A DNA stretch of 64,000 nt from the NCBI GenBank assembly GCA_026195255.1, contig JAPHSS010000020.1, forward strand, positions 50,887-114,886. The letters run 5' to 3'. This DNA is from Gammaproteobacteria bacterium (GTDB taxonomy: Bacteria > Pseudomonadota > Gammaproteobacteria > SZUA-229). The position numbers and the translations under genes were made by a program. The notes beneath the pieces were generated by a model. It ran no database searches. It was not told the DNA's origin and saw only the letters and a program-made list of their open reading frames with translations. Position 1 is the first letter of the stretch. Every line of letters begins with the position of its first letter. Shown here piece by piece: positions 6,086 through 42,400 of the stretch.

Positions 6086-6382
6086 ACCCGCACAGGTAAA
6101 TGTTACGGGCTTGCGGGGCTTATTACCCGCCCCAGAATTTAATAAACCTCAATTATTTATAAAACTTTCTTCTCCCTGAAAACCACGCTTACCCCGTTCA
6201 TGTCATAACAAAATTTATTACAACTGCTATATTTAGGACAAGCAGACTTAAACTATCGACTAGATGCCTTACCTGAATAACTAAGTTATGGCACTTTTAG
6301 ACTATCCATTTAAGTATAAAAATTAAAAACATACATACTTCAAGCTCTCAGGCATACAGGGCAGGTAGAGAGTCATAAAATT

Positions 6383-7243: not shown

Positions 7244-7309
7244 ACCCTTCCCTGGCAACCTCTCAGGCCAGCTTCTCCTTTATAATAAACATCATTCCAT
7301 ACATTAGCT

Positions 7310-20456: not shown

Positions 20457-20652
20457 AAAACGCGAATGAACGCTAATAAACGCAAATGCACGCTAAATTA
20501 ATTTTACGTACATAATAGTGTTGCCATTTCTGGATAATTGCTTCGGAAATCTAACGCCACTTAAAAGAATAAGTCCCCGACGCATTCGGGGAGAACAACA
20601 CGATATATATTGATTTGCGTTTATTTACGGTTATTTGCGTTCATTTGCGTTA
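20457..20652. repeat. Structured gltB-gltD intergenic element: two inverted arrays of four 10-bp direct repeats (consensus yATTTGCGTT) flanking a roughly 115-bp core that contains a GC hairpin
   Basis: Left array, read on the minus strand: ATTTAGCGTG CATTTGCGTT TATTAGCGTT CATTCGCGTT. Right array: GATTTGCGTT TATTTACGGT TATTTGCGTT CATTTGCGTT. Core hairpin GTCCCCGACGCATTCGGGGAG at about 20573-20593. Confidence 0.6.
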
Positions 20653-20685
20653 AATCTTTTATTACAAAAGGTTATAAATAATAGT

Positions 20686-22134
20686 ATGGGTAAGATTACA
20701 GGTTTTAAAGAATTCGAACGCAAGACTGCACCTTATCGTGACGTAACTGAACGTCTGAAAGATTTTGGTGAAATCTATACCGAACATGATAACCAGCACC
20801 TGATTACACAGGGCGCACGTTGCATGGATTGTGGCATTCCTTTCTGTCAGTCAGATGATGGCTGCCCGGTTGATAATCTAATTCCTGAATGGAACGATCT
20901 GGTTTACAACAATCGCTGGCAAGATGCTAACGAACGTTTACATCACACTAATAACTTTCCTGAATTCACTGGCCGTGTCTGTCCCGCGCCCTGTGAAGGC
21001 TCATGTGTATTAGGTATAAACAGTCCTGCCGTAACTATTAAAAACATTGAATGTGCAATTGTAGACCGTGCATTTGATGAAGGATGGATTACCGCTCAAG
21101 CGCCAGCAACTCGTAGCAGTAAAAAAGTAGCCGTTGTAGGCTCTGGCCCTGCAGGTATGGCGGCAGCACAGGAATTAAACCGGGCAGGTCATACGGTTAC
21201 TGTTTATGAACGCGCTGACCGCATTGGCGGCCTGTTAATGTACGGCATACCCAACATGAAACTCGACAAAAGTATTATTGATCGCCGGGTTCAGTTAATG
21301 AAAGACGAAGGCATTGAATTTAAAACAAATGCTGATGTTGGTAACAATATTGATATAAAAGAATTAAAACAAAACACTGATGCCATTTTATTTGCAACGG
21401 GCGCAACCACACCCCGAGATTTACCCGTAGATGGTCGTGATTTAAATGGCGTTCACTTCGCAATGGATTTTCTGACTGCAAACACAAAAAGCCTGTTAGA
21501 TTCAAATCTTCAAGACGATAACTATATTAGCGCTAAAGACAAACATGTTGTTGTTATTGGTGGTGGAGATACCGGTACTGACTGTATCGGCACCTCATTA
21601 CGCCACGGCTGCAAATCTGTTGTTAACTTCGAGTTAATGCCAGTACCGCCTGAGGCTCGTGCTGAAAACAATCCGTGGCCCGCCTGGCCTCACATCTACC
21701 GTGTAGACTATGGCCACGAAGAAGCAAAAAAAGTACAGGGAGAAGACCCTCGCACTTACTGTGTACTGAGCAAAGGTTTTACAGGCACTGACGGAAACGT
21801 TTCTAGCGTTAAAACTATTGAAGTTGAGTGGCATAGCGATGAAGAGACCGGCCAATGGAAAATGCAGGAAGTTGCTGGCTCTGAAAAAGAATGGCCAGCT
21901 GATTTAGTATTACTGGCAATGGGTTTTCTGGGTCCAGAACACTATGTAAGTGATGCGCTAGAAATTGAATATGATGAGCGTTCAAACTACAAAGCTGAAT
22001 ATGGAAAGTACGCCACCAGTATAGAGGGTGTTTATGCAGCAGGTGATTGCCGTCGCGGACAGTCTTTAGTTGTTTGGGGAATCAATGAAGGTCGCCAGGC
22101 AGCTGCCGAAATAGATCAGTTTCTGATCAGCTAA
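20686..22134 (+). CDS. gltD: Glutamate synthase small subunit GltD
   Basis: Fe-S cysteine clusters ([18 protein letters not shown]) and the FAD/NAD(P) dinucleotide fold [14 protein letters not shown]. Start chosen at the ATG at 20686, after an RBS. Confidence 0.9.
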
Positions 22135-22210: not shown

Positions 22211-23167
22211 CTAAAAGCTTTTAATTTCTAGCTCACTCTCTGTCGCAGGAACGAACGCATAGGATGCATATATTTTTTGCGCATCAGGCGTTGCCAGGTA
22301 TTTTAAAAAAACTTTTGCATTCTCTTTATTTCTAGCTTTATTCATTATACCAATAGCGTATGCAACCTTATCTTGCTTGTTGTAAGGCGCCTTAATTGCC
22401 ACACCATCAATTTTACGTCCCTCAGCTTTTGCATGCGCAACTTCTGAGGTCCAGACTATACCCACATCTGCCTGGTTGTTTTCTATACGATATGGCGTTT
22501 CACGGTGATGACGCTCAGTAAACCAGGTTTTCTGTGGCACCGCCCAGCATTTTTTGCATTTCTTATCTGCCGTTACCTTTTCATAAATACCCAGGTCTTT
22601 TAACATTTCACTACCATAAAATTTAAAAATACCTTCTGTTAAAGGATTTGGGTGTGACTGCACAAGATCATCTCTACCTAAATCTTCGGCGCCCTTTATG
22701 TTTTTGGGGTTACCCTCCGCCACCATTAACTCAAGTTTATTATGTGTATAAATTATATAGTTATTAAGCAAGCCTTTTTTATTTAACTTTTTAAGATGAT
22801 TTATATTTACACTTGCATATAAGTCAGGTGTCATAGATGTTTTTGCTCCATTTATTTTACCCTGCTTTAATAATTGCTTTTTTAAAATCTGTCCCGGCGG
22901 AATTGTTTCAACATAAACTGTTTTAATATTCTGGTTCTTTGATTGGAAGTCCTTTATCAACTCTTCCATAACCATGAACTGATTACCTGCCAGATACATA
23001 ACCAGATCTGAGTCGTATGAATCTTTTATATTGCCATAACCTATATCACCATTAACATTAAAGGTTCTATAGTCATGACCATGACCAGCGTCTTTTGCAC
23101 TAACCATTGACGAAAGCATTAACAACAATAATGTAGTAAACATATTTAATACGGGTTTTTTAATCAT
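22211..23167 (-). CDS. Periplasmic oxyanion-binding protein of the ModA/Sbp (molybdate, tungstate, sulfate/thiosulfate) fold. Orphan: no permease or ATPase gene nearby.
   Basis: Signal peptide. The C-terminal region ADVGIVWTSEV...AKVFLKYLATPDAQKIYASYAFVP resembles the ModA/Sbp/CysP C-lobe. I cannot resolve the subfamily from sequence alone. Confidence 0.55.
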   Translation of the reverse strand: MIKKPVLNMFTTLLLLMLSSMVSAKDAGHGHDYRTFNVNGDIGYGNIKDSYDSDLVMYLAGNQFMVMEELIKDFQSKNQNIKTVYVETIPPGQILKKQLLKQGKINGAKTSMTPDLYASVNINHLKKLNKKGLLNNYIIYTHNKLELMVAEGNPKNIKGAEDLGRDDLVQSHPNPLTEGIFKFYGSEMLKDLGIYEKVTADKKCKKCWAVPQKTWFTERHHRETPYRIENNQADVGIVWTSEVAHAKAEGRKIDGVAIKAPYNKQDKVAYAIGIMNKARNKENAKVFLKYLATPDAQKIYASYAFVPATESELEIKSF

Positions 23168-23327
23168 ATTTAATCTCCAGCTATATTATTTTTAATTTTT
23201 ATTTTCCATATATAGACGTTACAGAATAATTTTTTATTCCATATATTTTTATGCAACTTCATGTTGATATATTTCACGTATGCATATATTTTATATTACG
23301 TGTTTAACCTTAAAAAATGAGAATCTT

Positions 23328-23798
23328 ATGAAAAAACCATTGTCATCTGTTATTACACTTCTAAGTTTATTAACTATTTATACATTTAGTCACGCCGGGC
23401 CTGCAGGCTTGATAAATAAAGCCAGCAATTTTAATACTAATGAGACTATCAACCGACTAGAAGCCGTATTAAAAAAGAAAGGCATTACTGTTGTCACACG
23501 GTGGAACCATAGCGAGCGCGCTAAAGACATAGGCATTACACTCAGACCAACCGAGCTTATTATATTTGGAAATCCTGAATTAGGTAGTCAGTTTTTTACA
23601 TCTCAACAAACTTCAGGTATAGACTTACCTATGAAAGCACTAGCATGGGAAGATGAAACTGGTCAGGTATGGCTAAGTTACAATGATCCTTCATTTATAA
23701 CTTCCCGTCACAACATAAAAGATAGAGAGAATGTTTCAAAAAAAATGAAAAATGCTTTAAACAAACTCACCAATATTGCAACAGGAAGTAAAAATTAA
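23328..23798 (+). CDS. Secreted DUF302-family protein
   Basis: Signal peptide, then a DUF302-like core (…IFGNPELGSQFF…IDLPMKALAWEDETGQVWLSYNDP). It overlaps the stop of the convergent anti-sigma gene by 4 bp. Confidence 0.55.
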   Translation: MKKPLSSVITLLSLLTIYTFSHAGPAGLINKASNFNTNETINRLEAVLKKKGITVVTRWNHSERAKDIGITLRPTELIIFGNPELGSQFFTSQQTSGIDLPMKALAWEDETGQVWLSYNDPSFITSRHNIKDRENVSKKMKNALNKLTNIATGSKN

Positions 23799-24496
23799 AT
23801 TTTAATATATGACCAGCCTTCATGTACACGTTTAACAACCTGCTCAATTGCAGTTACACCATGATGTACTGAGTTGATCATTTTAGGCTCAATGCCTTCT
23901 TTACGTAGACGCTCTACCGCATTACTACAAGCTATGAATTTTATATTTGGATATTCATTGCTCAAGGCTTTTACTCGTTGCGAATAGGGAGATGCGTTTT
24001 CACGAAACAAATCAAGCCCACCTGCATTAGCAATAATTTCTAATTGTATACCCTGATCAATATTTTGATAATTAGCTAATAACATTTCAGCCTGATCAAG
24101 GGTTTGTTTAAATTTTTTATTATCATTTACGCTAATGTGTAAAATATACTTGCCGGGATTTTCAGCAAGCACCTGCATTGCCGGATTAACTGAACTTTCA
24201 TCTGACGTGCCCATGCGATTGCTCAGCATATCACTAGTAAACCAGCCGCCTGTAAATGTAATAATTAAAAGAGCCACTGAAGCCAGCATACGATAGCTAC
24301 TATTTGAAGCCTGTTGTTTAACAGGTGGTTTCACATTCTGGTATGCATGCTGTAACTGTGCTTTTAACGCGTATAAATCATCAAGAGTTTGCTGCAGACT
24401 TGTATCAGTCAATAAGGCTTTTTCAAACTCTGTTTTTTCACCGCCTTGCAGCTCACCATCTGCATAGGCATGTATAATTTCTGTAGAGAATTCCAT
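23795..24496 (-). CDS. Membrane anti-sigma factor whose periplasmic C-terminal domain has a DsrE/YchN-like (sulfur-relay fold) sequence
   Basis: N-terminal anti-sigma domain (IHAYADGEL..EKAL…LDDL) lacking a zinc motif, one TM helix (MLASVALLIITFTGGWF), and a C-terminal roughly 130 aa that is paralogous to the CDS at 25309-25745 and keeps a conserved Cys (ACSN). It is 3 bp downstream of the ECF sigma gene. Confidence 0.65.
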   Translation of the reverse strand: MEFSTEIIHAYADGELQGGEKTEFEKALLTDTSLQQTLDDLYALKAQLQHAYQNVKPPVKQQASNSSYRMLASVALLIITFTGGWFTSDMLSNRMGTSDESSVNPAMQVLAENPGKYILHISVNDNKKFKQTLDQAEMLLANYQNIDQGIQLEIIANAGGLDLFRENASPYSQRVKALSNEYPNIKFIACSNAVERLRKEGIEPKMINSVHHGVTAIEQVVKRVHEGWSYIKI

Positions 24497-24498
24497 TA

Positions 24499-25086
24499 TT
24501 ATTTTACCACTCTCAAAATGTTGTCTGCATTGCTTTCCTGTGCTTTACATGCCACATGTGTTTTATTTTGTTGTTCCAAACGCTTTTTTTTAATGCTCTT
24601 ACCTAAGGCACTTCTTGCCCTGTTTAAGCGACTCATCACTGTACCAATAGGCACCTGTAATACACTTGCCACTTCACTATAACTAAGACCCTCCAGATCA
24701 ACCAGACTAACAACCTGACGCTGGGCATTAGGCAGGCCGGTCATGGCGCTACGCACCATCAGGTCAACCTGATTTACCAGCATTTCATGCTCTGGTGTAT
24801 TATTGTCTGCAATTACAATTCGTTCAATATCTTCACTGGGCCTGCTTTTTCTTAAATAACCCAACCAGACGTTATTTAAAATCGTATAAACCCAGCCATC
24901 AAAAGCCGCCTCGTCTTTCAATTGCTCAATTTTTTGAAGCGCCAACATCTGGGTTTCCTGCACCAGGTCATCAGCCAGCATGGCATCATGCGACCAGGCA
25001 TATGCCATTCGATAAAGCTTTGGACGACTTGACTCTATGCGTCTAACAAGCCCCACCTTACGACAGGCTAGTTTAAATATATTCAC
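24499..25086 (-). CDS. ECF (group 4) sigma-70 family RNA polymerase sigma factor
   Basis: Region 2 (LVQETQMLALQKIEQLKDEAAFDGWVYTILNNVWLGYLRK) and region 4 (SYSEVASVLQVPIGTVMSRLNRAR). Confidence 0.85.
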   Translation of the reverse strand: MNIFKLACRKVGLVRRIESSRPKLYRMAYAWSHDAMLADDLVQETQMLALQKIEQLKDEAAFDGWVYTILNNVWLGYLRKSRPSEDIERIVIADNNTPEHEMLVNQVDLMVRSAMTGLPNAQRQVVSLVDLEGLSYSEVASVLQVPIGTVMSRLNRARSALGKSIKKKRLEQQNKTHVACKAQESNADNILRVVK

Positions 25087-25106
25087 TACACACTCTTAAT
25101 TATCCC

Positions 25107-25240
25107 TTAAACAAATTGGATTACTAAATTAAAGATACATTTGTCCTGGTTTTTATTCCATTTAATTTAAATTAAATCATTAATTAGAAAACAACTAAAT
25201 TAGCACTATCTAATTCATTGATTTAATTAAACAAATTGGA
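25107..25240. promoter_or_regulatory. Divergent promoter region holding two direct copies of TTAAACAAATTGGA exactly 120 bp apart
   Basis: The repeat copies are at 25107-25120 and 25227-25240, in the AT-rich spacer between the ECF sigma gene (minus strand) and the DsrE-like gene (plus strand). Each TTGGA(A/T)TA could serve as an ECF-type -35 element (GGAAT). Confidence 0.35.
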
Positions 25241-25308
25241 ATATTTTTTCCATACGTTTCATCTATTACCTGAATCACAATTAAACCTGAGGAGGTTAAT
25301 AAAAAAAA

Positions 25309-25745
25309 TGAAATCAATAATTCTAATTTTCACGCTACTGCTGTGCATGGCATCAATGACTGCTAATGCAGATAGCACTAGCAAGCCATTCGCTGAAAAG
25401 CGTGTAGTTCTTCAGATAAGCGACCCAAATCCATTTAAACAAACACTGGTTTTAAATGTTGCCGGCAATCTGATCAAGCACTATGGTCAGGATAAGGTTG
25501 ATATTGAAATAGTTGCATTTGGCCCTGGCCTTAGACTATTAATGGCAGGTAATAGTAATCAGTCACGTATTAGCGGCTTGAGCGATTCGGGCATCCAGTT
25601 TTCTGCATGTGAAAATACCATTGCAGCTTTTACTAAAAAATTAGGCCATAAACCCGAACTGGTTTCACAGGCAACACCTGTTAGTGCAGGTATTGTACGA
25701 ATTTTAGATCTAACAGCTCAGGGTTACACTCTGATTAAGCCTTAA
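25309..25745 (+). CDS. Secreted DsrE/YchN-like fold protein, paralogous to the anti-sigma C-domain
   Basis: GAGGAGG RBS and a signal peptide (MKSIILIFTLLLCMASMTANA). VLQISDPNPFKQTL / IEIVAFGPGLRLL / FSACENT align with the anti-sigma motifs ILHISVNDNKKFKQTL / LEIIANAGGLDLF / FIACSNA. Confidence 0.5.
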
Positions 25746-25767
25746 TATGCATCATGAGGAAATATTA

Positions 25768-27078
25768 ATGAATATAAAAAAAATAGCATTATTGACTGGT
25801 TTGTCATTAATTAGCACAGGCACATATGCTGCCAACTGGCTGTCGTTACAGGGAACAGAGAAACCGGGCTCATCAGCACGAGCAAAGGTATGGGGATTTA
25901 TACAACCTGAATACCAGAAAACTGATGGTACAAAATTACCTGCAGGTACCCCTTTTGGCGGACAGAACATGTCTCCAAATATGATCAAACCAGATAACAC
26001 ATCTAATGAATCGTTTAATATTCGTCGTGCACGTGTTGGTGTACGAGGTACAGGCTTCCCTCTTGATGACAATGTTAACTACTTCTTCCTGGCAGAATTT
26101 GGCCACAACGGAATAACCAAGCTGGGTAAAACAGGTGTTTCACTTACTGACGCCAGCATAACTTTAAACCATATCTCTGGCGCACGTATTCGAGTTGGGC
26201 AATTTAAAACACCGACATCTGAAGAAGGTTTACAGGCCATTCACGTATTTAACTATGTGAACTTTACCAGTATGACTGACCAGATGATGCTTGAACGCTT
26301 TACTGATGGTGATGGCATTGCCGCCCCAACTACAAATGCTAATGGACCCAATGGGTCAGTGGGTGCTTTTCGTGATCAGGGTATCCAGGTATTTGATACA
26401 TTCAAGGTAAACGACTGGGAACACAGTTATGCGGTAATGTATGGCAATGGAAATGGCATTAACCGCTCTGATAGTGACAATAACAAAGACACATACCTAT
26501 ACTGGTCGTCTGAACTTGTTTATGGCGGTAAAGGCGCACGTCGTGAAGGCCTTAAAATGTTCGCATGGAACCAGGATGGTACTCGCACCTTAACGACCTC
26601 AGGTGCCGGTGAATATGACCGTACCCGTAATGGTTTGGGCATCACTTTTCTTAAAGGCAAGTATCGCGCAGCAGCCGAATACATGACTGCAGATGGTATG
26701 ATCTTTAATGGTTCTGACGGCGGAGCAGTTCCTGGCTCTAGAAACAATGCTGATACAACCACCGCCACCCTAAATGTGCTCACTGACGATAAATCTGATG
26801 GTTATTACCTGGATTTCGGCTACAAGGTATTACCAAAACTTGAGCTGGATATTCGTTATGACGTATTAAACAGAGCAACTGAAACTGTAAACGGTGAACG
26901 TGTTTTCGATACAGTCACTCTGGGTGCACAATACTTCTTTAACAAGAAGACCCGCGTCACTTTCAACTATGAAATACGCAATCAGGATGCCCCCGGGTTT
27001 ACTGATACTCAGGGTCCAAACCTGATTGCCGATAATCTTGACGACAGATTGTCATTACAGTTATTAGCAATATTCTGA
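25768..27078 (+). CDS. Outer-membrane beta-barrel porin, possibly an OprO/OprP-like anion-selective porin
   Basis: GAGGA RBS, a signal peptide (…TGTYA-ANW), amphipathic beta-strand periodicity over about 440 aa, and a C-terminal aromatic residue (…LAIF). The subfamily is a guess. Confidence 0.5.
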   Translation: MNIKKIALLTGLSLISTGTYAANWLSLQGTEKPGSSARAKVWGFIQPEYQKTDGTKLPAGTPFGGQNMSPNMIKPDNTSNESFNIRRARVGVRGTGFPLDDNVNYFFLAEFGHNGITKLGKTGVSLTDASITLNHISGARIRVGQFKTPTSEEGLQAIHVFNYVNFTSMTDQMMLERFTDGDGIAAPTTNANGPNGSVGAFRDQGIQVFDTFKVNDWEHSYAVMYGNGNGINRSDSDNNKDTYLYWSSELVYGGKGARREGLKMFAWNQDGTRTLTTSGAGEYDRTRNGLGITFLKGKYRAAAEYMTADGMIFNGSDGGAVPGSRNNADTTTATLNVLTDDKSDGYYLDFGYKVLPKLELDIRYDVLNRATETVNGERVFDTVTLGAQYFFNKKTRVTFNYEIRNQDAPGFTDTQGPNLIADNLDDRLSLQLLAIF

Positions 27079-27103: not shown

Positions 27104-27131
27104 AACCTCCCTTGCTCTGGGGAGGTTTTAT
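27104..27131 (+). terminator. Rho-independent terminator after the porin gene
   Basis: CCTCCC-TTGCTCTG-GGGAGG hairpin followed by a TTTTA run. Confidence 0.6.
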
Positions 27132-27301
27132 ATTAAAAAAGGAACATTTTAATCTAATTAAGTAACGACTAATACTGACTTTGAATTGCCCATATTGATT
27201 GATTTACTGTATTTATGTGCTATCTTTTATATTCGGAGCTTAATATAAGCGGCGTTGTTGTCTTGCTATTATTAACCTTCACAGTATATCAGGAGTATCC
27301 T

Positions 27302-28198
27302 TTGCGTCATTTCTTTTTACAATTTTCTAGCTGCATCTTCATATTTTATTCAAGCTCACTTTACTCTCAGGAAAATATTCTTAACTGGGTAGGTTGCGGC
27401 ATAAGTAAAAAATCTTATATGACACGCCTTGCCAAAGCATACACCGACTCTAAAAAAATAGATGTAAACTTACAAGGTGGCGGAGCAACACGTGGCATAC
27501 GTGATGTTTCAAAATTAACGGCAGACTTTGGAGGGGCTTGCAGATATTATTTACCAGGAAACCTTCAGGAAGAAAAAGTCGGTTTTGAACCCGTTGCCTG
27601 GGATGCATTAGCCGTTATTACACACCCTGACAACCCCGTCAATAACTTATCTCTTAAGCAGGTTAGGAAAATATATACCGGTGAAATCACAAACTGGAAA
27701 TCCGTTGGCGGTAATGATGCCCCAATAAAATTATTAACCCGAAAAGGTAAAATTTCTGGCGTAGGTTACTCAATACGTTCTTTAATATTTTCTGATACAA
27801 ATATGGAATTCCCACATTCAAAAAAGTTTAAATCGAGTGGCCCAATTGAAAAAGCCGTTGAGTCAGATATTAATGCTCTTGCCATTACAGGTGTGAGTAG
27901 CGCGAGATTAAGACAGGTTAAAATATTGAGCCTGAACAATAAACAACCAAATTATGACACTATCAAAAGTGGTCATTATGTTTTATATAGACCTCTTTAT
28001 ATAACCTTCAATCCACTAGGCCCCCAGGCAAAACAGGTTAAGGATTTTATTCGTTTTGCACACAGCAAAACAGGTAGAAGCATTATGATTAAAAATGGTG
28101 TAGTACCCTACATTGATGCCCTCAGGCTGGTGATGATCCAGTCTAGACAAACTTTAGCATCCCAGTCGAATAGTAAATCTAACTTAACTTACGATTAA
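27302..28198 (+). CDS. PstS-family (phosphate-type) periplasmic oxyanion-binding protein. Orphan: no pstCAB nearby.
   Basis: AKAYTDSKKIDVNLQGGGATRGIRDV...ADFGGACR resembles the PstS N-lobe (…GGGSG.G…SR). The likely start is the TTG at 27302, after an AGGAG; the ORF track gives 27215. Confidence 0.5.
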   Translation: MRHFFLQFSSCIFIFYSSSLYSQENILNWVGCGISKKSYMTRLAKAYTDSKKIDVNLQGGGATRGIRDVSKLTADFGGACRYYLPGNLQEEKVGFEPVAWDALAVITHPDNPVNNLSLKQVRKIYTGEITNWKSVGGNDAPIKLLTRKGKISGVGYSIRSLIFSDTNMEFPHSKKFKSSGPIEKAVESDINALAITGVSSARLRQVKILSLNNKQPNYDTIKSGHYVLYRPLYITFNPLGPQAKQVKDFIRFAHSKTGRSIMIKNGVVPYIDALRLVMIQSRQTLASQSNSKSNLTYD

Positions 28199-28332
28199 CA
28201 GCTCAGCCAGTAATAAATATTATTCGTTAGAAAGCCATAATACAGACACATAATTAAAACATATCAGCTTATTAACCTCCCCTGGTTAACAAAAACTCTG
28301 TGTTATGTTCGCCTCTGTGGCAAAATAGCCAC

Positions 28333-30078
28333 ATGGCTGGCCGTATACCTCAACAATTCATTGACGACCTTATCAATCGTGCTGACATAGTCGACGTTGT
28401 AGACTCACGTGTCGCCTTAAAAAAGCGCGGCAAAGAACATATTGCCTGCTGCCCTTTCCATAATGAAAAAAGCCCTTCTTTTACTGTTAGTCAAAGTAAG
28501 CAGTTTTATCATTGTTTTGGCTGTGGAGCCCATGGCACTGCACTTGGCTTCATAATGGAGTACGAGCGTCTTGACTTTGTAGATGCCATTGAAGTACTTG
28601 CCGCTGAGTACCATATCGACGTACCTCGTGAACAGGGCAGTTTTAACCCCCAGCAAGATGACAAAAAACCACTCTATGAAATTTTAGAAAAAGCCTCTCT
28701 TAATTTCGCAAATGAATTAAAAAAAACACCTCGTGCGGTAGAATATTTAAAACAGCGCGGCTTAAGTGGTGAAATTGCAAAAGACTTTCAAATGGGTTAC
28801 GCACCTGATAGCTGGGATTTCACACTAGGGCAACCAGGCCTGAGTAAAGAAGATAAAACTGCCTGCCTAAAGTCAGGTTTGAGCATCGAAAAAAGCCCTC
28901 AGAAACATTACGACCGTTTTCGTGACCGTATAATGTTTCCTATACGAGACCGACGCGGTCGTACAATTGGCTTTGGTGGCCGCATACTGGATAAGGGAGA
29001 GCCCAAATATTTAAACTCCCCTGAAACCCCGGTATTTCATAAAGGCGAAGAGTTATATGGCTTATATGAAGCAAGGCAATCAGTAAAAGACTTAAAACGG
29101 ATTGTCATTGTTGAAGGTTATATGGACGTTGTTGCACTTGCACAACATGGAATCAAATATGCGGTAGCCACCCTGGGAACGGCTACTTCAGAAACACAGA
29201 TATCCAAACTGTCTCGCATCGTTCCTGAATTAATTTTTTGTTATGATGGTGATGCGGCAGGAAAAAAAGCAGCCTGGCGAGCATTAGAAAATTCACTCTC
29301 TGTATTACGAGATGGTATACAGGCAAGATTTTTATTCTTACCAGATGGAGAAGACCCTGACACCCTGGTCAGGCAAGAAGGGCAACAGGCTTTCGAACAA
29401 CGTTTAAGTAATGCGACACCTCTCTCAGATTTTATGTTGCAACATTTATCAGAAGATCTGGATTTATCTTCTGCCGATGGTTGTGGTCGACTTTCAGAAA
29501 AGGCCAAACCCTTAATTAGTAAAATTGAAGATGGTGTATTTAAAGACCTGTTAGTTAATCAACTTTCAAAAATGATTGGTTTATCCAGTTCCAGCCTGCA
29601 ACAACACATCCCCGAGTCGAAAAACAAAACACAAACTCCGCACTACAATAACAGAGCAGTGTCTGCAAAACACCAGATCAGCATGACCCCTACCCGTCTT
29701 GCCATTGCGCTATTATTACAACACCCGTCACTTGCAAAAGAGTGTGAAATTCCCGAACAACTTTTATCCTCTGATATGCCGGGTTTAAAACTGCTAATAC
29801 AAATACACAAAACAATATTACAAACAGATGCAATCTCACCTTCGGTTTTAGTTGAACGCTGGCGAGACACTATTGACGCACCTGTTATTAATAAACTTAT
29901 GCAACTAGATATACCTGAAGCGAAGAAAGATACGCAACTCGCATCTTTAAAAGATGCTTTTAAGAATCTGCTGCAAAAACACAAAGACGAACGCCTACAG
30001 GAATTACTAAACAAAAGCCGCACATCTGAATTAAGCTCAGATGAAAAAAGTGAATTAAGCCAGCTTTATCAGAGCTAA
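28333..30078 (+). CDS. dnaG: DNA primase DnaG
   Basis: MAGRIPQQFIDDLINRADIVDVV N-terminus, a CHC2 zinc finger (CCPFHNEKSPSF…CFGCGAHG), the TOPRIM domain, and a C-terminal DnaB-interaction domain. Confidence 0.9.
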   Translation: MAGRIPQQFIDDLINRADIVDVVDSRVALKKRGKEHIACCPFHNEKSPSFTVSQSKQFYHCFGCGAHGTALGFIMEYERLDFVDAIEVLAAEYHIDVPREQGSFNPQQDDKKPLYEILEKASLNFANELKKTPRAVEYLKQRGLSGEIAKDFQMGYAPDSWDFTLGQPGLSKEDKTACLKSGLSIEKSPQKHYDRFRDRIMFPIRDRRGRTIGFGGRILDKGEPKYLNSPETPVFHKGEELYGLYEARQSVKDLKRIVIVEGYMDVVALAQHGIKYAVATLGTATSETQISKLSRIVPELIFCYDGDAAGKKAAWRALENSLSVLRDGIQARFLFLPDGEDPDTLVRQEGQQAFEQRLSNATPLSDFMLQHLSEDLDLSSADGCGRLSEKAKPLISKIEDGVFKDLLVNQLSKMIGLSSSSLQQHIPESKNKTQTPHYNNRAVSAKHQISMTPTRLAIALLLQHPSLAKECEIPEQLLSSDMPGLKLLIQIHKTILQTDAISPSVLVERWRDTIDAPVINKLMQLDIPEAKKDTQLASLKDAFKNLLQKHKDERLQELLNKSRTSELSSDEKSELSQLYQS

Positions 30079-35994: not shown

Positions 35995-36447
35995 TTACAT
36001 CATTACCTGTTTTACAATTGATTCAAGTTTTTCAATATTAACAATACTATAAGTACCATCAGCCATCATCACTTTGTCTTCAATGGCAGGGTGTGTTATT
36101 TCTTCTTTATTTGAAATAATATCTTCTTCTTTAACATTAACTACTGTCGGTGCATCCTGCATTAAAATTGACATGAACGGTAAGTTACTATCTTCACCAA
36201 TAGAAAACAAAATAGCCGCTTTAACTGAACCAGTAGCAAGACTCGGCATGCGAACATTACCCATTGCTTCAAATGAAATAAGTGGAACTGAATGTCCACG
36301 CCAATCTAAATAACCTAACATCCAGCCAGGTTTATTTGCCACATTAATAATATTTTTAATAGGCACTATTTCAGCTACCGCTGCATTAGGCATTAACAGC
36401 TCATCACCATTAATCTTTAATATTACACATTTAATTTCTTCAGACAT
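35995..36447 (-). CDS. chpC: CheW-like coupling protein ChpC
   Basis: A 150-aa CheW domain immediately downstream of chpA, with a 1-bp overlap. Confidence 0.7.
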   Translation of the reverse strand: MSEEIKCVILKINGDELLMPNAAVAEIVPIKNIINVANKPGWMLGYLDWRGHSVPLISFEAMGNVRMPSLATGSVKAAILFSIGEDSNLPFMSILMQDAPTVVNVKEEDIISNKEEITHPAIEDKVMMADGTYSIVNIEKLESIVKQVMM

Positions 36448-39400
36448 CAGTCAAGTAACTCATGTATATTTTCAAGTAATTCATCTTCCTGGAATGGTTT
36501 ACCCATATATTTGTTTACACCAATTTCCATTGCTTTGTCTTTATGCTTGGCGCCACTACGAGATGTAATCATTATTATAGGCAAATCAACCAGTCGAGGA
36601 TCATTCCTTACGTGCGTAGCTACTTCGTAGCCGTCCATTCTCGGCATCTCAATATCTAACAACATCACATCAGGTTTAATCTCCTGCAACTGTGATACAG
36701 CATCCACACCATCTTTCGCGGTGACAACTTTCATATCATGCCTGGTTAACATACGCTCTGTAACTTTACGAATGGTAATAGAATCATCAACTACCATAAC
36801 GATAGTTTCTCGTTTTTCTTCTGCTACAGGTAATACTTCACCCGCTGGGCTTTCAGTTTCATCTTCAGATTCTGTAATGTGGAATAAAGAATCTCCGAGA
36901 ACCAGGGAGTTCATTTCGAGAATAATGACTACACGGCCATCACCCAATATTGTAGCTCCAGAAATACCACGTACTGTGCTTATTTGTGAGCCAACTGGTT
37001 TAACAACCACTTCACGTCGACCAATTAACTCATCGACATGCAAGGCAACACTCTGCTCGCCAGTTCTGGCTAACAATACAGGGAACAACTGACCTGAACG
37101 TGAATAGTCAGGCTGCTCGCCTGTCAACATCTGTCCTAAATGTTTTAACTCATACGAACTGCCGGCAAACTCATACGTACTCTCGCCACTGTTATAGAAT
37201 TGTTGCAATTCCGGACCAGACAGTCGAACAACACCTTCAATACTATTCAATGGCACTGCGTAAATTTCATCACCCACATTAACAAGTAGTGCATGATTAA
37301 TAGCAAGTGTAAGCGGTAAACGAATTTTGAATGTTGTGCCCTTACCTTGAACAGTATCTATTTCTAAAACACCGCCAAGTTGTTTTATCTCGCTGTCAAC
37401 AACATCCATTCCAACACCACGGCCGGAAATTTGAGTAACTTTTTCAGCTGTACTAAAACCAGCTTCCATAATATATTGCAATACGTCATGATCGCTGATC
37501 TTACTATTGGCATCTAACAGGCCTTTTTCAGTTGCTTTCTTTCGTATTGCATTAACATCTATGCCGCGCCCGTCATCTTTAACAATAATGACAACATCAG
37601 CGCCTTCACGATCAACGACTATTTTAAGCGTACCTGAATCTGGCTTACCTGCAGCCTGACGTTCAGCCACCTTTTCTATGCCATGCGATACCGCATTACG
37701 TAACATATGTTCAAGAGGTGCAACGATTCGGTCTAATACCGTTCGATCAACCTCAGACGTTTCACCAACAATTTCAAGCTCTACTTCTTTATCTAAATCT
37801 CGTGCAGTTTGGCGAACAATTCTTCGTAACCTTGACGCAAGCCCACCAAAGTGAACCATACGCGTACGCATCAAACCTTCCTGTAACTCAGTACTTACTC
37901 GAGATTCCTGTAACAGTAATGTTTCAGAGTCACGAACCTCTTCAGATAAAAGCTCTTTAATACTCTCTATATCACTTACAGTTTCCTGCAAGCTTCGTGA
38001 AATCTGTTGCATAGTTGAGAATCGGTCCATTTCTAATGGATCGAAATCTTCATCATACTGATCTGATTCCTTTTCATAACGTGAAAGAATCTGTGCTTCA
38101 GTCTCAATAGAAAGCTGGCGCAGCTGATCGCGCAAACGAATAACTGTTTGATTCATTTCTGAAAGGTTGAATGAAAAGTTTGATATCTGCTGGCCCATAC
38201 GTGCATGATATACACTAACTTCACCAGCATGATTTACCAGCTCATTTAATAGGTCAGATCGTACACGCACCTGTTCAGTGGCAATACTCTCTTTTTGCTG
38301 AGGGACTATTTTTTCGTGAGATTCATCTGATTTATCAAGAACCAGATCTGATGCGTCATTATTTTTAACGGATAGAGCTTCTACTGGCTCTTCTGAAGTA
38401 AGCTCATCTGTAGCCGGTTCATCTGAAGTTAACTCATCTGTAGTTGTCTCTAATTCTGCCTCTAGCTCGGCATCATCAATTACACTCACAGAAACATTAT
38501 CGACAGATTCAGCTGTTTCTTCGAGCAGTGATTCTGTACTTAATTCAACTTCATAAGTTGCATTTTCATCGAATACGAGCTCTTCTGTGTTAGCGGATTC
38601 GACATTATCTGCATCGTCGGGAATTTCAAAACCAAAGTCATCATCTGACTCTATGACAAGCTCTTCTGATAAAACATCTTCTTCTGACAGCTCAATTGAA
38701 AATGCTTCTGATTCATCAGTGTCTTCTTTTGTTATGCTTTTATCAGCCCCCCGGGGGGGCTCAGGCTCATCAACCTCTTCATTTAATGAAGCTGCCTGGC
38801 CATTATTTAAAGTTTTTTTTCCCTCTCTAATCGCATCAATATGCGAAATCAATGCAACAGCAGATGATAATGGTTTTCTATCTTTTACCTTAGATAACAT
38901 ATCAGACAACTTATCCAGAGCGTCATGGAATGCATTTGATATATCTTTACTGAATGGTAATTTTTTATCGTTTACAGCTATAACTAAAGATTCAAGAGCA
39001 TGTGTCAAGTCTCCTACAGGGCTTAGATCCGCCATCCTTGCACCACCCTTCAGTGTATGCAAATGACGCTGTAAATCTAAAACACTTTCTTCATCTTCAT
39101 TATTCGAATTCCAGCGCTGCAAACTATTTTCACAGTTATCTAGTAACTCTTCCGCCTCTTCCAGGAATATCTCTACTAACTCATCATCAACATCAGAGTA
39201 ACTAACTAACGACTCTTCACTATTTGTTTCATTACTAATTTCATTTACTGCGTCTATATCTTCAGTTTTTATTGATTGACTACGTTTCTCATCAACTAAC
39301 TCTTTGATGCGATTTAACAATGATGTATCGGATGACAGCTGATGATTTTTCTGTTCCAGCGCTTCCAGCATAGCAGAAACTTTATCAGTTACATCCCTAA

Positions 39401-42400
39401 TCAAACTAACGCCTGAGCTTGATATACTTAAGTCATTTCCATCAAGATACAAACGAACATATTTTTCAAGCTCGCCACATAATTCTGCAATCTCATCAAC
39501 TTCGGCAGTTCTGGCACTTCCAAATAATGTATGCAGCGCTCTTAAAAGTTCAGCATTGGCAGTTAACGGCTCAATTGACTGATTATGTAAATCAAGTAAA
39601 CTGTTTATTTTTTTCAGATGGTTTTCGGACTCACCCTTGAATATGTCAAATAATACAGGATCAATGTATATCTGTAACTTGTCTTCTGAAATCGGCTCAA
39701 TTTCTTCAGGTTCTGCTTCTTCTAACTGAATTTCATCTTCTAAAACGAGTTCATCAAAAGAAAAATCGTCTACTTCAACTACTTCTTCGTCAGATGAAGC
39801 AATCTGTAATGCTTCTAACTCTTCAGTTAAATCTATATCAAACTCATCATCAAAATCATTACCCGCTTCTTCTAATTCCAGGTTTGAATTTACTTCGGGA
39901 GCTTCTTCTATAACATCTTCTAAAACCAGCTCATCTTCCGAAATTTCATCCATCAATTCGTCTTCTGAAATTTCAATTACTGCAGACTCATCAACAGTCA
40001 GGGCGGGTTCGTCAGGCTGATTTTCTGACTGCCCTTCTTCTAGCGACTCTGCTTCAGTTGTTTCTATATTTAATTGATCAGCTTCTTCAACAGGGTTCTC
40101 TACTTTAGATTTTTTTATAGCCGAAGCAGGCTTATCAGCTGTCGGCTTTTCCCACTTTCCCAGCGCATCTGTCCTGTCAATTAGCTGGTATATATTGGGA
40201 ATAGGCTCTTTATTGCCTTTTAACTGCTCTATTAACTGAGGTAAGACACCTAATGACTCATGTAATATATCAAACACATCCTGTGTAAGAGGGCGTGATT
40301 TATCAATCACGCGATTAAGCATATTTTCAAAATTCCAGGAAAACTCACCTATAAGTTCCGCACCAATTAAACGCCCACTGCCCTTTAATGTATGAAATGA
40401 ACGACGAATAGTACTTAATGCTTCCTGGTTACCATGATCACGCTCCCAAAGAGGAATTTGCTCATTCAGTGAAGCGAGCTCTTCCATTGCTTCTTCAATA
40501 AAAATTTCTAATATTTCTTCATCTGCATCATCGCCAAGAATGATATAACGCTCTTCTTCTACTGCGGATTTACTTACAACCTCTGGCGCAGCTTCTTCAG
40601 TCTCTACGTCAGGCGGCGCTTCAGCTACAACATTCTGTTCAGGTTCTTCAGGCGATTTTTCCTGAGTGCTGTCTGGCTGAACATCGGCATCACTAACACC
40701 GCTTTCAGCTGCTATAGCTAATAACCTGTCTGCTGCCTCATTACCTGAGGTCATCGACAATTCAAGATCTGGACGACCTTCCAATACCGCCTCAAGATAA
40801 TACTCAATACTGGTAACGACATCCGCAAGATCATTTTGCACCGAGGCTTCTGGTATCTGCCCGGCATTTAACATAACTTTTGAAACATACTCACGAACAG
40901 AAACTGTCTGGTGTTTTAGTTTTTGAATAGGCAACATAAACATTGCACCATCAACTTCATCCAGGCGCTGAATGATTAAATCTAGCAAACTTTTATCAAC
41001 TGGATTTTCAAGATAACTCAGAATAGCCAGTCTTGCGTCATTGAAGTCCTGTAATGCCTCGCGTATTACCGCTGCCAGCACTTCCAGGTATTCGCCTTCA
41101 GGCATATCTGCCAAATCACCAACGCGACGTGCTGGCTCATCTTCACCCGTAGATCGATTAGCAATAAAGCTATTTAACTGAGACTCAACTGCAAGCAGAA
41201 CACCCGCCACATTCATGATAAGTTCATCAGTTGGTTCTTTAGATTTAGAAATCACCTGATTAATTACTTCTTGCTGCTCAATAACCTGCTCTCGAGGCAT
41301 ACCCAGCCCAAGCATTGATAAAGTATCAGCAATTTTTGCAAGTAAGGCCGGTAAGTTATTCAAACGGCCTAAATCCTGTGCCTCACTATGAACAAATATT
41401 TCCAGAGTATCTTTAACTTCTAGTAAATCTTCGCGTATGCCCGCTGAAACAGTTTCTAACAACTCGGAATTCAGGCCACCCATTCCAGAGCGAGCTTCTT
41501 CCAGCTCAGTATCACCAGGTAATAATTCTTCCAGACGGTAAGTGGTTTTTATTTTTTTAACACGGGGTGAATCAGTTGTAATTCGCGCGACATAATAAAG
41601 CAGGTTTTTTAATAAATCAGATGGCGCATTAGCGGCAAAACTTTCTTCATCTGTATCAATCAGTTGCTTTATGCTTCTATCAACCTGACCTAATAACATT
41701 TTGATACTGACGTTACTGTCTATGCCGTCTTTAGTCAGGCCTTCAATTAATGCAGAACTTATAGACCAGATGCGGCGTGTTGAAGGGTTAGCCGACTTTT
41801 TCTCCAACTCACCTAATACCGCAAGGATACGCTTTAAACTGGCAGCAATTTTCTGCCCTTTAAACCAGCCAACCAAACCAATTTGATAATGCGGACGTAG
41901 TTTTTTTGCAGTAGCCACCAGTTGACCTGATTCAATATCAGTCTCAGCTTGCTCTGCATCAGTTTCAACATCAGGGAAAAATAAAACATTTTCAGATAAT
42001 AAACTTGCGTTACGAGAAGCACGCAAATCGTTTAACAACGGTAGCAATACCATGGGCACATCTTTCCTGCCCGACTGCAAGCTTTCCAGATAATCAGGTA
42101 ATTGCAGCATTGATCGCATCAAGACATCATAGGCATCGTCAACTTTTTCGATTTTGCCATTAAGTAACGCTTCGGAAACTTTTTCCATCTCCTCAGCTAA
42201 TTGCGCAGCACCATATAACTCGACCATTTGCAAAGTGCCCTGCACCATATGCAAATGCTCTACCGATTCGCGCAAGCGATCAGTGTCTTCTGTGTCTTCT
42301 ATATAAGCTGACAGTGAAGCCTGAGCTTCCTGTAATATCAGATCAAGTTCTTTTTTGACCCAACGCAGCGAATTATATTCAACAGTATCCTCTGTTTTCA

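Follow-up and report, generated by a model that had tools for sequence, protein, structure and literature searches.

An ECF sigma/anti-sigma pair with a DsrE-like periplasmic domain as a candidate switch in sulfur-oxidising bacteria

What does an ECF anti-sigma factor sense if its periplasmic domain resembles a secreted protein that is encoded just across a divergent promoter region? This question is raised by a locus within a 64,000-nucleotide stretch of the gammaproteobacterial contig JAPHSS010000020.1 (hereafter the window). An earlier note, made from the sequence alone, had listed three open reading frames here, coding for an anti-sigma factor, an ECF sigma factor and a secreted protein ending at 25745. 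It had proposed that the C-terminal domain of the anti-sigma factor is a DsrE/YchN-like paralogue of the secreted protein and senses persulfide or redox state through a conserved cysteine, with the free protein as a possible ligand or decoy. All three reading frames are present, and the interpretation as a whole is supported, with caveats on the chemistry of the cysteine, the role of the paralogue and the uniqueness of the design.

The sigma factor gene (24499..25086, minus strand) encodes a 195-aa protein that contains sigma-2 and sigma-4 domains only (Sigma70_r2, 2e-12; Sigma70_r4_2, 6.7e-15) and reaches 76.5 bits against a cut-off of 42.9 for TIGR02937. It thereby meets the criteria for an ECF (group IV) sigma factor. 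After a gap of 2 nt follows the gene for the 233-aa anti-sigma factor (23795..24496, minus strand); in two related loci (L027 and L028) the called sigma and anti-sigma genes share a 4-nt overlap. The anti-sigma factor begins with a cytoplasmic helical domain of the anti-sigma type (about residues 1-58), which matches RsiW and MucA in fold. The domain is identified by this fold match, while its binding of the sigma factor is inferred. A single transmembrane segment at residues 69-87 (24236..24292, minus strand; RMLASVALLIITFTGGWFT) stands out as the 19-residue stretch of highest hydrophobicity in the protein (mean Kyte-Doolittle value 1.6). Residues 69-81 are predicted by AlphaFold to be helical, and the hydrophobicity of the segment is kept in our homologue alignments A1 and A3. 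Residues 113-233 (23798..24160, minus strand) constitute the periplasmic sensor domain with its MTH1491/DsrE/YchN fold. No cysteine occurs in residues 1-189, the lone one being located at position 190, and because the cytoplasmic domain is devoid of cysteines, a zinc-binding (ZAS) thiol switch with an H-x3-C-x2-C motif was ruled out. In RsrA/SigR and other ZAS systems, anti-sigma activity is likewise thought to depend on cysteine chemistry; however, their cysteines bind zinc in the cytoplasmic anti-sigma domain, whereas the only cysteine here is periplasmic.

The free paralogue (25308..25745, plus strand) is a 145-aa protein with a Sec signal peptide (cleavage after ANA) and an MTH1491/DsrE-like domain. 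Both DsrE-like proteins of the window are thus predicted to be periplasmic, one by its signal peptide and the other by its membrane topology. Translation of the free paralogue starts at the ATG at 25308, which is preceded by a GAGGAGG ribosome-binding site, and its homologues all have a length of about 145 aa. The 169-aa reading frame with a TTG start at 25236 that had been assumed before did not hold, as this TTG lies upstream of the predicted promoter and the homologues begin at the position of the ATG. We also rejected a lipoprotein, since the cysteine within the signal peptide is outside any lipobox and not conserved. In databases, the family is named ‘Blr3520 protein homolog’ or ‘DsrE family protein’.

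The similarity between the anti-sigma C-terminal domain and the secreted protein is well beyond chance. BLASTP aligned the two proteins with 27% identity over 167 columns (E = 3e-9), and hhalign of 40 anti-sigma against 29 secreted homologues gave a probability of 96.8% (E = 2.2e-10, 111 columns), with ACSN placed opposite ACEN. Each window protein on its own matched the MTH1491 structure (PDB 1L1S; E = 2.5e-6 and 4e-7), and the family profile A3 matched it across the whole chain with E = 3.9e-19 and cysteine opposite cysteine. Both domains therefore meet the criteria for MTH1491-like (COG1416-type) proteins, that is, full-domain similarity together with an (A/G)-C-x-N motif. By fold and sequence comparison, the anti-sigma domain matches MTH1491, YchN and DsrE, and it possesses the three-layer alpha/beta fold of the DsrE/DsrF/DsrH-YchN group with the characteristic order of elements. 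The assignment to the DsrE/YchN fold, which would have been refuted by a lack of significant similarity, thus held for both domains. The threshold of the Pfam DsrE model (PF02635) was not reached by the secreted protein (15.3 versus 22.7 bits), and the anti-sigma factor did not match this model at all; the free paralogues of L027-L029 carry a precomputed PF02635 match. A sequence-level link to E. coli TusD was sought by hhalign and rejected, so that kinship with DsrE/TusD exists at the level of the fold only.

The 27% identity between the two window proteins hardly differs from the 24-29% that each of them shares with archaeal MTH1491, and a neighbour-joining tree, though rough, groups the tethered domains in a clade of their own. 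Judging by tree and identities, we rejected the idea that the sensor domain arose recently by local duplication; the paralogy is old, and the monophyletic sensor clade is consistent with one ancient fusion. Over the same loci, the sensor domain evolves much faster (31-73% identity) than the free paralogue (61-90%).

The conserved cysteine corresponds to Cys190 in the anti-sigma factor (codon 23927-23929, minus strand) and to Cys101 in the free paralogue (codon 25608-25610, plus strand). Every homologue with a residue at that column has it, 345/345 of the fusion type and 130/130 of the free type; the objection that it might vary among homologues was checked and did not hold. Cys190 is the sole cysteine of the whole anti-sigma factor and Cys101 that of the mature secreted protein; with one cysteine per mature protein, an intramolecular disulfide is not possible. 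In the AlphaFold prediction, a strand (residues 185-190) is directly followed by a helix (residues 191-199), which places Cys190 at the strand-to-helix junction at the end of beta3, and Cys101 likewise ends beta3 ahead of a helix. By the order of secondary structure elements, this position is similar to that of TusD Cys78 (LNIC-VAAALRRG); no residue-level superposition supports it. As the Pfam match is below threshold and hhalign with TusD was negative, the equivalence of Cys190 with the active-site cysteine of DsrE/TusD is supported only by the fold and the order of its elements. The assumption that such a cysteine carries sulfane sulfur held in part: it is established for DsrE/TusD. For DsrE3A, carriage of thiosulfonate has been established, with a Cys-S-thiosulfonate being formed with tetrathionate (PMC4175335). 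The window proteins, however, are members of the MTH1491/YchN branch, where neither kind of carriage is established. To our knowledge, neither a function nor a sulfur adduct has been demonstrated for any MTH1491-type protein.

Which genes might the sigma factor control? An ECF-type motif, GGAATA-N16-YRTCT, has three matches in the window versus 0.12 expected, and all three copies are located within 2 kb, correctly oriented upstream of genes. One copy (25133..25159, minus strand; GGAATAAAAACCAGGACAAATGTATCT) is a predicted ECF-dependent promoter of the sigma/anti-sigma operon, and the same motif takes the same place in related loci. The autoregulation this implies is backed by computational evidence only, namely the conservation and enrichment of the motif. 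A second predicted promoter (25238..25264, plus strand; GGAATATTTTTTCCATACGTTTCATCT) faces the operon of the free paralogue and a porin gene (25747..27078, plus strand), whose reading frame begins 1 nt past the stop codon of the paralogue, with Met8 (25768) as its likely start. The product is an outer-membrane anion-type porin (Porin_O_P, PF07396, E = 5.9e-9), and a terminator-like hairpin with a T-run 3' of the gene (27104..27127, plus strand) marks the probable end of the operon. As a side observation, an abundant porin of the Riftia symbiont (PMC7787665) may be a homologue of this porin. The PstS-family gene further downstream (27215..28198, plus strand; PBP_like_2, E = 1.9e-24) was not accepted as an operon member, as it is preceded by the hairpin, lacks an upstream motif and has counterparts in no relatives but the closest two, L001 and L006; it is a lineage-specific neighbour that is not shown to be part of the regulon.

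The third predicted ECF-dependent promoter (23214..23240, minus strand; GGAATAAAAAATTATTCTGTAACGTCT) is separated by 46 nt from the ATG of the downstream gene for an orphan periplasmic oxyanion-binding protein (22211..23167, minus strand; SBP_bac_11, PF13531, E = 2.5e-35) of the molybdate/sulfate/thiosulfate-binding class. CysP and Sbp models match this protein at 1e-9 to 1e-10, and its sole PDB match is the sulfate-binding protein 5UM2 (E = 1e-5). L006 and L007 share the motif and L001 has a close match to it, and judged by the motif the binding protein is likely a lineage-specific member of the regulon. Between the genes for the binding protein and the anti-sigma factor lies one for a secreted DUF302 protein (23280..23798, plus strand; PF03625, E = 4e-17), which is convergent with the anti-sigma gene with a 4-nt overlap of their ends; it also occurs in L001, L006, L007 and L020 and is regarded as an accessory neighbour. 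A 13-nt intergenic direct repeat (TTAAACAAATTGG) was dismissed as the site of a second regulator, being only partly kept in a 96%-identical relative and absent further out. In most related loci, divergent motif pairs are intergenic, as in L026, L028 (facing sox) and L029, and they include the Pandoraea pair that faces soxC; L027 has a single copy, which faces the DsrE-like/porin operon.

The anti-sigma/DsrE-like fusion constitutes a large unnamed family of at least 555 clusters (50% identity) at E <= 1e-10. An ECF sigma gene adjoins the fusion gene in every locus with flanking sequence, in the same order in all 30+ loci. The free paralogue is found beside the fusion in 29 of 32 informative loci from Gamma- and Betaproteobacteria, almost always as the first gene of the neighbouring operon, and is missing near the fusion in L024, L025 and L034. 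The pairing of a tethered sensor with a free paralogue is thus a conserved trait and not an accident of one genome. Its commonest partner is the operon of a DsrE-like protein and Porin_O_P (25 loci, including Sulfuricella denitrificans). In four loci (L025, L026, L028 and L034, Pandoraea terrae among them) a sox operon faces the sigma/anti-sigma pair, and in L029 a DsrE-like gene is accompanied by a YeeE-type transporter (Sulf_transp) beside sHdr-LbpA genes. Carriers are sulfur oxidisers such as Sulfuricella denitrificans, Thiogranum, Thiolapillus, Thiotrichaceae and a siboglinid endosymbiont. The sulfur reading proposed before receives independent support from the sox and DsrE-like/YeeE/sHdr contexts of these relatives. 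Other neighbours are genes for PstS-, PhnD- and ModA-type binding proteins, PPK2 genes and glycogen genes.

Near-contiguous sigma and anti-sigma genes, a periplasmic DsrE-like domain with an invariant cysteine, a free paralogue and a common motif in front of the operons are shown, the promoters as motifs only. On this basis we favour, with moderate confidence and without any experimental evidence, a module in which ECF sigma/anti-sigma signalling with a membrane-tethered, MTH1491-type DsrE-like periplasmic input senses reduced sulfur and drives envelope sulfur genes. At rest, the anti-sigma factor would keep the sigma factor at the membrane. Reduced sulfur in the periplasm (sulfane sulfur/polysulfide, thiosulfate or polythionate) would modify or bind the sensor at Cys190, a modification possibly taking the form of a persulfide or thiosulfonate. 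The altered domain would then cease to stabilise the anti-sigma factor, by a conformational or oligomeric change or by regulated proteolysis, and the freed sigma factor would transcribe its own operon along with genes for sulfur handling in the envelope. In the window these predicted targets are the single-cysteine periplasmic carrier-like protein, the anion-type porin and the sulfate/thiosulfate-class binding protein, and in other lineages they may be the Sox thiosulfate-oxidising system or a YeeE-type importer of sulfur compounds. The free paralogue would mainly be an effector, a periplasmic carrier or binder of sulfur, and the sensor domain, drawn from the same protein family, would recognise the same compound. 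The nature of the signal is inferred from neighbouring genes, and the chemistry of the cysteine and contact between the paralogues are inferences as well; both sensing via the cysteine and a ligand or decoy role of the free paralogue remain hypotheses. Several observations count against this reading: the Porin_O_P partner and the PstS/PhnD/ModA, PPK2 and glycogen neighbours are also compatible with an oxyanion, phosphate-like or not, as the signal, a fast-diverging sensor next to a slowly diverging paralogue is not the simplest prediction of a shared, strictly conserved ligand site, and three loci lack a nearby free paralogue.

In a possible variant, a sulfur relay or partner switch, the free paralogue would be the primary receptor that captures sulfur on its cysteine and either passes it to Cys190 or exchanges in mixed oligomers, so that the anti-sigma factor responds to how far the free carrier is loaded and not to the compound itself. 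As the free paralogue is itself predicted to be sigma-dependent, a feedback loop would be built into such a switch. In its boldest form, which we regard as conceivable and which rests on an inferred interaction, a Cys-to-Cys sulfur relay or mixed trimers would translate the loading state into sigma release, and many Beta- and Gammaproteobacteria, symbionts of animals among them, would rely on the module as the master switch of sulfur oxidation that depends on Sox, porin or YeeE. If true, this would be a sulfur counterpart of a phosphorelay and a first signalling role for the DsrE fold. Against it stands the strong conservation of the paralogue while the sensor diverges fast, which speaks against a tight co-evolving interface. 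Moreover, residues that characterise the MTH1491 archetype (H120, N157, R223, W228 and Y230) are kept in the sensor and replaced in the window-type free paralogue, and the fusion occurs without a nearby free paralogue in L024, L025 and L034.

We consider it unlikely that the domain merely binds, non-covalently, an anion imported by the porin (thiosulfate, sulfate, phosphate, phosphonate or a polyphosphate-like compound). The cysteine would then belong to the binding pocket or have a structural role, and the regulon would serve to acquire anions, not to oxidise sulfur. In favour are Porin_O_P as the commonest partner, the recurrence near the module of orphan PstS-, ModA/Sbp- and PhnD-type binding proteins, of which one follows a copy of the promoter motif, and the PPK2 and glycogen genes in some loci. 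However, a lone periplasmic cysteine that is invariant over more than 470 sequences is hard to explain if non-reactive, sulfur is favoured by the neighbouring sox, sHdr and YeeE genes and by the carriers being confined to sulfur oxidisers, and no phosphate-regulon genes (pstSCAB, phoBR) adjoin the module in any locus listed. An even weaker case can be made for a sensor of thiol or redox stress in the envelope, with Cys190 being oxidised by sulfenylation or to a mixed disulfide via DsbA or oxidants. A single reactive-looking cysteine does sit in an oxidising compartment, and many ECF systems are stress responses. Yet the predicted regulon is small and specific (a carrier-like protein, a porin, a binding protein or Sox) without repair or chaperone genes, and it is not obvious what part the conserved free paralogue would play.

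The favoured module, reduced-sulfur sensing by a tethered DsrE-like domain, has a close functional parallel in ECF26-type systems, of which RpoE1/RpoE4 of Sinorhizobium meliloti and RpoE of Starkeya novella respond to sulfite/thiosulfate (PMC3511301). In both cases an ECF sigma factor is paired with a single-pass anti-sigma factor in one (here predicted) transcript, which in ECF26 is autoregulated and induced by thiosulfate or sulfite-generating compounds, and a neighbouring promoter drives, or is here predicted to drive, a few genes for sulfur oxidation in the periplasm (sorT/sorAB in ECF26). In contrast, the ECF26 anti-sigma factors carry a COG5662-type instead of a DsrE-like domain, there is no free sensor paralogue, and the targets are sulfite dehydrogenases, not DsrE-like/porin or Sox genes as predicted here. 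Among structural relatives, MTH1491 (1L1S), a homotrimer (PMC5495134), and ST0148 (2PD2) are soluble, stand-alone archaeal cytoplasmic proteins of the COG1416 type, whereas the window encodes an exported copy and a second one that forms part of a membrane-tethered anti-sigma factor. DsrEFH/TusBCD and DsrE3A form cytoplasmic hetero-hexamers that feed DsrC or tRNA thiolation and, by the negative hhalign comparison with TusD, share no significant sequence similarity with the window proteins. No DsrF/H-type genes are adjacent to the window module, and no DsrEFH/TusBCD/DsrE3A member is known to have a signalling role. A periplasmic DsrE-like protein within a sox operon has been reported as a ‘Blr3520 homolog’, MHY1_00068 of Methylovirgula thiovorans (PMC9371685); as in L026 and L028, it is secreted and encoded with Sox genes, but it was noted merely as a gene without an assigned function. 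The ‘membrane-bound DsrE-like’ MHY1_00073 of Methylovirgula does not describe the fusion, as it is DsrE2A, a different, cytoplasm-facing protein. In the SigI/RsgI systems of Clostridium thermocellum, the RsgI anti-sigma factors bear an extracellular sensor domain that copies a binding module found in the regulated proteins. The design principle, a sensor copying a module of sigma-controlled proteins, is the same, but those systems are Gram-positive and use carbohydrate-binding modules for a polysaccharide signal without cysteine chemistry. With this precedent, the signal-input design is unusual, as had been proposed, but not unique.

In the literature searched, we found no description of an anti-sigma/DsrE-like fusion with a sigma factor, and the ECF re-classification paper, its supplements aside, does not mention DsrE. 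New are the size of the fusion family, the conserved pairing with the paralogue, the types of partner operons and the ECF-type motif at three sites. As the trio recurs in hundreds of sulfur-oxidising bacteria beside genes for sulfur oxidation or anion uptake, it is probably an undescribed switch for sulfur metabolism. Few regulators of dissimilatory sulfur oxidation are known, among them ArsR-type SoxR/sHdrR repressors and the ECF26 sulfite response. The module is a widespread candidate for extracytoplasmic sensing of reduced sulfur in Beta- and Gammaproteobacterial sulfur oxidisers, including tubeworm symbionts, and comes with a predicted promoter, a predicted regulon of few genes and just one residue as target for mutation; culturable carriers exist with Sulfuricella denitrificans skB26 and Pandoraea terrae. 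It also provides a first functional handle on the MTH1491/COG1416 branch, for which crystal structures have been available since 2002 without an assigned function, and on the ‘Blr3520-like’ periplasmic DsrE-like proteins of sox clusters. Should the cysteine indeed carry sulfur, a sulfur-carrier fold would have been recruited as the input of transmembrane signalling.

The ECF sigma factor and the anti-sigma factor with a DsrE-like domain belong to a compact envelope module that sits between gltD (20635-22134) and dnaG (28300-30078). The sigma factor gene (24499-25086, minus strand) is followed after 2 nt by that of the 233-aa anti-sigma factor (23795-24496, minus strand), located directly 3' of it. 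Across a 221-bp gap lies an operon on the opposite strand, which starts with the gene of a secreted 145-aa DsrE-like protein (25308-25745, plus strand). A gene for a Porin_O_P-family outer-membrane protein (25747-27078, plus strand) begins 1 nt past its stop codon and is followed by a terminator-like hairpin (27104-27127, plus strand). The module is flanked by genes for a PstS-family binding protein (27215-28198, plus strand), a secreted DUF302 protein (23280-23798, plus strand), convergent with the anti-sigma gene, whose last 4 nt it overlaps, and an orphan ModA/Sbp-class binding protein (22211-23167, minus strand). DUF302 neighbors were also found in L001, L006, L007 and the Thiogranum contig L020, which are among the related loci gathered from other genomes. 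The remaining window is of housekeeping character (ftsYEX, rpoH, gltBD, metK, ahcY, metF, a Chp chemosensory cluster and gshB). The chemosensory genes form a Pil-Chp-type setting, in which a CheW gene comes after that of a ChpA-like hybrid histidine kinase of 1987 aa (36447-42410, minus strand) with several Hpt domains, a CheW domain and a receiver domain. The secreted protein is 100% identical to its counterpart from a gammaproteobacterial MAG, and among named relatives the tubeworm endosymbiont of Galathealinum brachiosum is the nearest.

The earlier note had aligned the periplasmic domain of the anti-sigma factor with the secreted protein by eye and had paired a Cys in ACSN with one in ACEN. 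Both claims held. BLASTP aligned the two proteins with 27% identity (E=3e-9), and a profile-profile comparison of 40 homologs of the 233-aa protein with 29 of the secreted protein placed ACSN opposite ACEN (probability 96.8%, E=2.2e-10). The start of the secreted protein had to be corrected to the ATG at 25308, instead of the TTG at 25236. Each protein separately matched the sequence of the MTH1491 crystal structure (1L1S; E=2.5e-6 and 4e-7), as did a profile of 50 diverse fusion proteins, here meaning anti-sigma factors of this architecture (E=3.9e-19). In the AlphaFold models, the C-terminal domain of the 233-aa protein had a pLDDT of about 80-88 and the secreted protein a mean pLDDT of 89.9. 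By structure, the sensor is a member of the MTH1491/COG1416 branch of the DsrE/YchN superfamily, a branch without assigned function.

When all collected homologs were aligned to the family profile, none of the proteins with a residue at the relevant column lacked the Cys (345/345 fusion-type and 130/130 free). No other Cys occurs anywhere in the anti-sigma factor or in the mature secreted protein; therefore, an intramolecular disulfide involving it is ruled out. Both models place it as the final residue of strand beta3, with a helix directly after. From the order of the secondary-structure elements, and not from a residue-level superposition, we infer that this position may correspond to Cys78 of E. 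coli TusD (LNIC-VAAALRRG); hhalign gave no match to TusD at the sequence level.

Scanned in full with HMMER, a set of 1.84 billion cluster representatives yielded 810 relatives of the fusion protein at E<=1e-3, of which 555 also passed E<=1e-10. Among the top 150, about 144 were full-length (~220-256 aa) and matched from residue ~5 to the end, and the fusion is therefore an established family and not a local accident. Neither Pfam nor NCBIfam holds a dedicated family for it, and its source labels read 'hypothetical protein', 'transmembrane anti-sigma factor' or 'intracellular sulfur oxidation DsrE/DsrF family protein'. In a rough neighbor-joining tree, every tethered domain fell into one clade apart from the free proteins, suggesting that the fusion is ancient and of single origin and that the neighboring gene is not its recent parent. 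Among the free proteins, the 'window-type' clade was very tight and the 'sox/Sulfuricella-type' clade looser, and the Pandoraea protein (L028) branched separately. The residues of the archaeal archetype (H120, N157, R165, R223, W228 and Y230) are kept in the tethered domain and replaced in the window-type free protein. Across L001-L033, identity to the window copy amounted to 61-90% for the free paralog, 31-73% for the sensor domain, 44-76% for the sigma factor and 42-84% for the porin. Leaving out the near-identical L006, the free paralog was the most conserved of the four except in two cases, with the sigma factor scoring higher in L002, L003, L012 and L013 and the porin in L008. A constrained free protein and a fast-changing sensor fit an effector with a derived sensor somewhat better than a tight co-evolving complex, and we lean towards the former; a transient contact between the paralogs remains conceivable, as unequal conservation does not exclude it.

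An alignment of the regions 5' of the sigma and free-paralog genes revealed a common motif, TGGAATA-N16-(C/T)(A/G)TCT. The form GGAATA-N16-YRTCT occurs three times in the 64-kb window against 0.12 expected from shuffles, none of which reached three, and all copies lie within 2 kb and are oriented correctly. They correspond to predicted promoters of the sigma operon (25159-25133, minus strand), of the secreted paralog and porin (25238-25264, plus strand) and of the ModA/Sbp-like binding protein (23240-23214, minus strand), the latter ending 46 nt 5' of the ATG. L006 and L007 retain this third site, and L001 nearly matches it; the protein behind it has no transporter genes nearby, and its sole PDB match is a sulfate-binding protein. 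Related loci carry the motif as two divergent copies between the genes, among them the pair facing soxC in Pandoraea and those of L026 and L029. ECF promoters typically combine a GGAA-type -35 with a CGTCT-type -10 element, as seen here, although the prediction rests on motif evidence only, without a mapped transcription start. The divergent intergenic region also carries a 13-nt direct repeat, TTAAACAAATTGG (25107-25119 and 25228-25240, plus strand), of which one copy lies directly next to the -35 of the paralog promoter and the other in the sigma-operon leader. The repeat is only partly retained in a 96%-identical relative and missing in more distant ones.

We compared 34 related loci by tblastn and Pfam. 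Wherever the flank exists, the sigma gene stands 5' of the fusion gene, and a free DsrE-like paralog adjoins the pair in 29 of 32 informative loci, near-duplicates among them. The partner operon consists of the DsrE-like and Porin_O_P genes in 25 loci from at least five unrelated chromosomal neighborhoods; these include the cultured sulfur oxidizer Sulfuricella denitrificans skB26 (L027) and Thiogranum MAGs, where the operon is convergent and not divergent. In four loci the partner is a sox operon, arranged as soxCD-YZ-DsrE-AXB in Pandoraea terrae (L028), DsrE-soxYZA in L026 and soxYZAXB in L025 and L034. L029 pairs a DsrE-like gene with one for a YeeE-type Sulf_transp protein, adjoining an sHdr-LbpA cluster. 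The module is repeatedly paired with sulfur-oxidation genes in sulfur-oxidizing lineages. Two tandem free DsrE-like genes (6375-7302, minus strand), opposite the sigma/anti-sigma pair, replace the DsrE-like and porin genes in L032, and L024 is the sole fully flanked locus without any of these partner genes.

Some neighborhoods showed further features. In S. denitrificans (L027; AP013066) and in L030, a MAG contig of unrelated lineage whose DsrE-like protein is labeled Thiolapillus sp., the four-gene module is set amid a glycogen cluster (glgA, glgB, glgC, glgP, GH57 and GH77), and two PPK2 polyphosphate kinase genes lie nearby in L031. This may be coincidence or may reflect a link to storage metabolism. 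Orphan oxyanion-binding proteins by the module differ with lineage, being of PstS, ModA/Sbp or PhnD type (the window, L001 and L006; 8819-9625 in L033), and no ABC permease genes were found beside any of them. A porin without known function (EGV52132.1), which ranks first in abundance among the proteins of the Riftia endosymbiont (PMC7787665), might be a homolog of the module porin.

These data show the operon of sigma and anti-sigma factor, the domain architecture, topology and fold, the invariant lone Cys, and the conservation of both the neighbor and the promoter motif; everything mechanistic beyond the architecture is inference. DsrE and TusD are known to carry persulfide, and DsrE3A forms a Cys-S-thiosulfonate with tetrathionate (PMC4175335). 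We propose that the periplasmic domain detects reduced sulfur species, probably through its Cys190. Binding or modification would inactivate the anti-sigma factor, either through regulated proteolysis or because its conformation or oligomeric state changes, and the freed sigma factor would transcribe the envelope genes along with its own operon. Import and retention of the sulfur compound may then fall to the secreted single-Cys protein, the anion-type porin and the sulfate/thiosulfate-class binding protein, a role that Sox or a YeeE-type importer would fill in other lineages. It is likely that the pair uses its DsrE-like periplasmic input to control the neighboring operon. That the signal is a sulfur compound is the reading we favor by a modest margin, while Cys chemistry as the sensing step is judged slightly less likely than not.

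A possible variant is a relay or partner switch, in which the free paralog loads first and then passes sulfur to the tethered domain or swaps subunits with it. The free paralog is near-obligate whatever else the partner operon holds, MTH1491 is trimeric (PMC5495134), and DsrEFH and TusBCD are habitually hetero-oligomeric; however, the paralogs are unequally conserved, and the free one is missing from three loci. Non-covalent sensing of an oxyanion, not necessarily sulfur-based, would agree with the module porin belonging to the phosphate-porin family and with the recurrence of PstS-, PhnD- and ModA-type binding proteins, PPK2 and glycogen genes nearby, but appears unlikely given the invariant lone Cys and the sox and sHdr contexts. 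Least probable is a general sensor of periplasmic redox stress, against which the small and specific predicted regulon speaks.

In its workings, the module would resemble other ECF/anti-sigma systems. Functionally, it comes closest to the regulator of Starkeya sorAB and to the sulfite response that the ECF26-type RpoE1/RpoE4 of S. meliloti govern (PMC3511301), but the anti-sigma factors there have another periplasmic domain and no free paralog. The module protein also differs from DsrE/TusD relay subunits in the strict sense: it scores below the Pfam threshold, is located in the periplasm and lacks DsrF/H partners. One earlier study noted a sox operon that includes a gene for a periplasmic DsrE-like protein, without assigning it a function (PMC9371685). 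That study's 'membrane-bound DsrE-like' protein was considered as the present fusion and rejected, as it is DsrE2A. There is precedent, in the RsgI anti-sigma factors, for a sensor domain that is a copy of a module from the proteins under regulation. The open-access literature we searched contained no description of an anti-sigma factor with a DsrE-like domain; the finding is real and conserved, and undescribed within that literature. The module is open to direct testing in cultured strains. With it, ECF signaling gains a new class of input domain, and the DsrE fold a new role.
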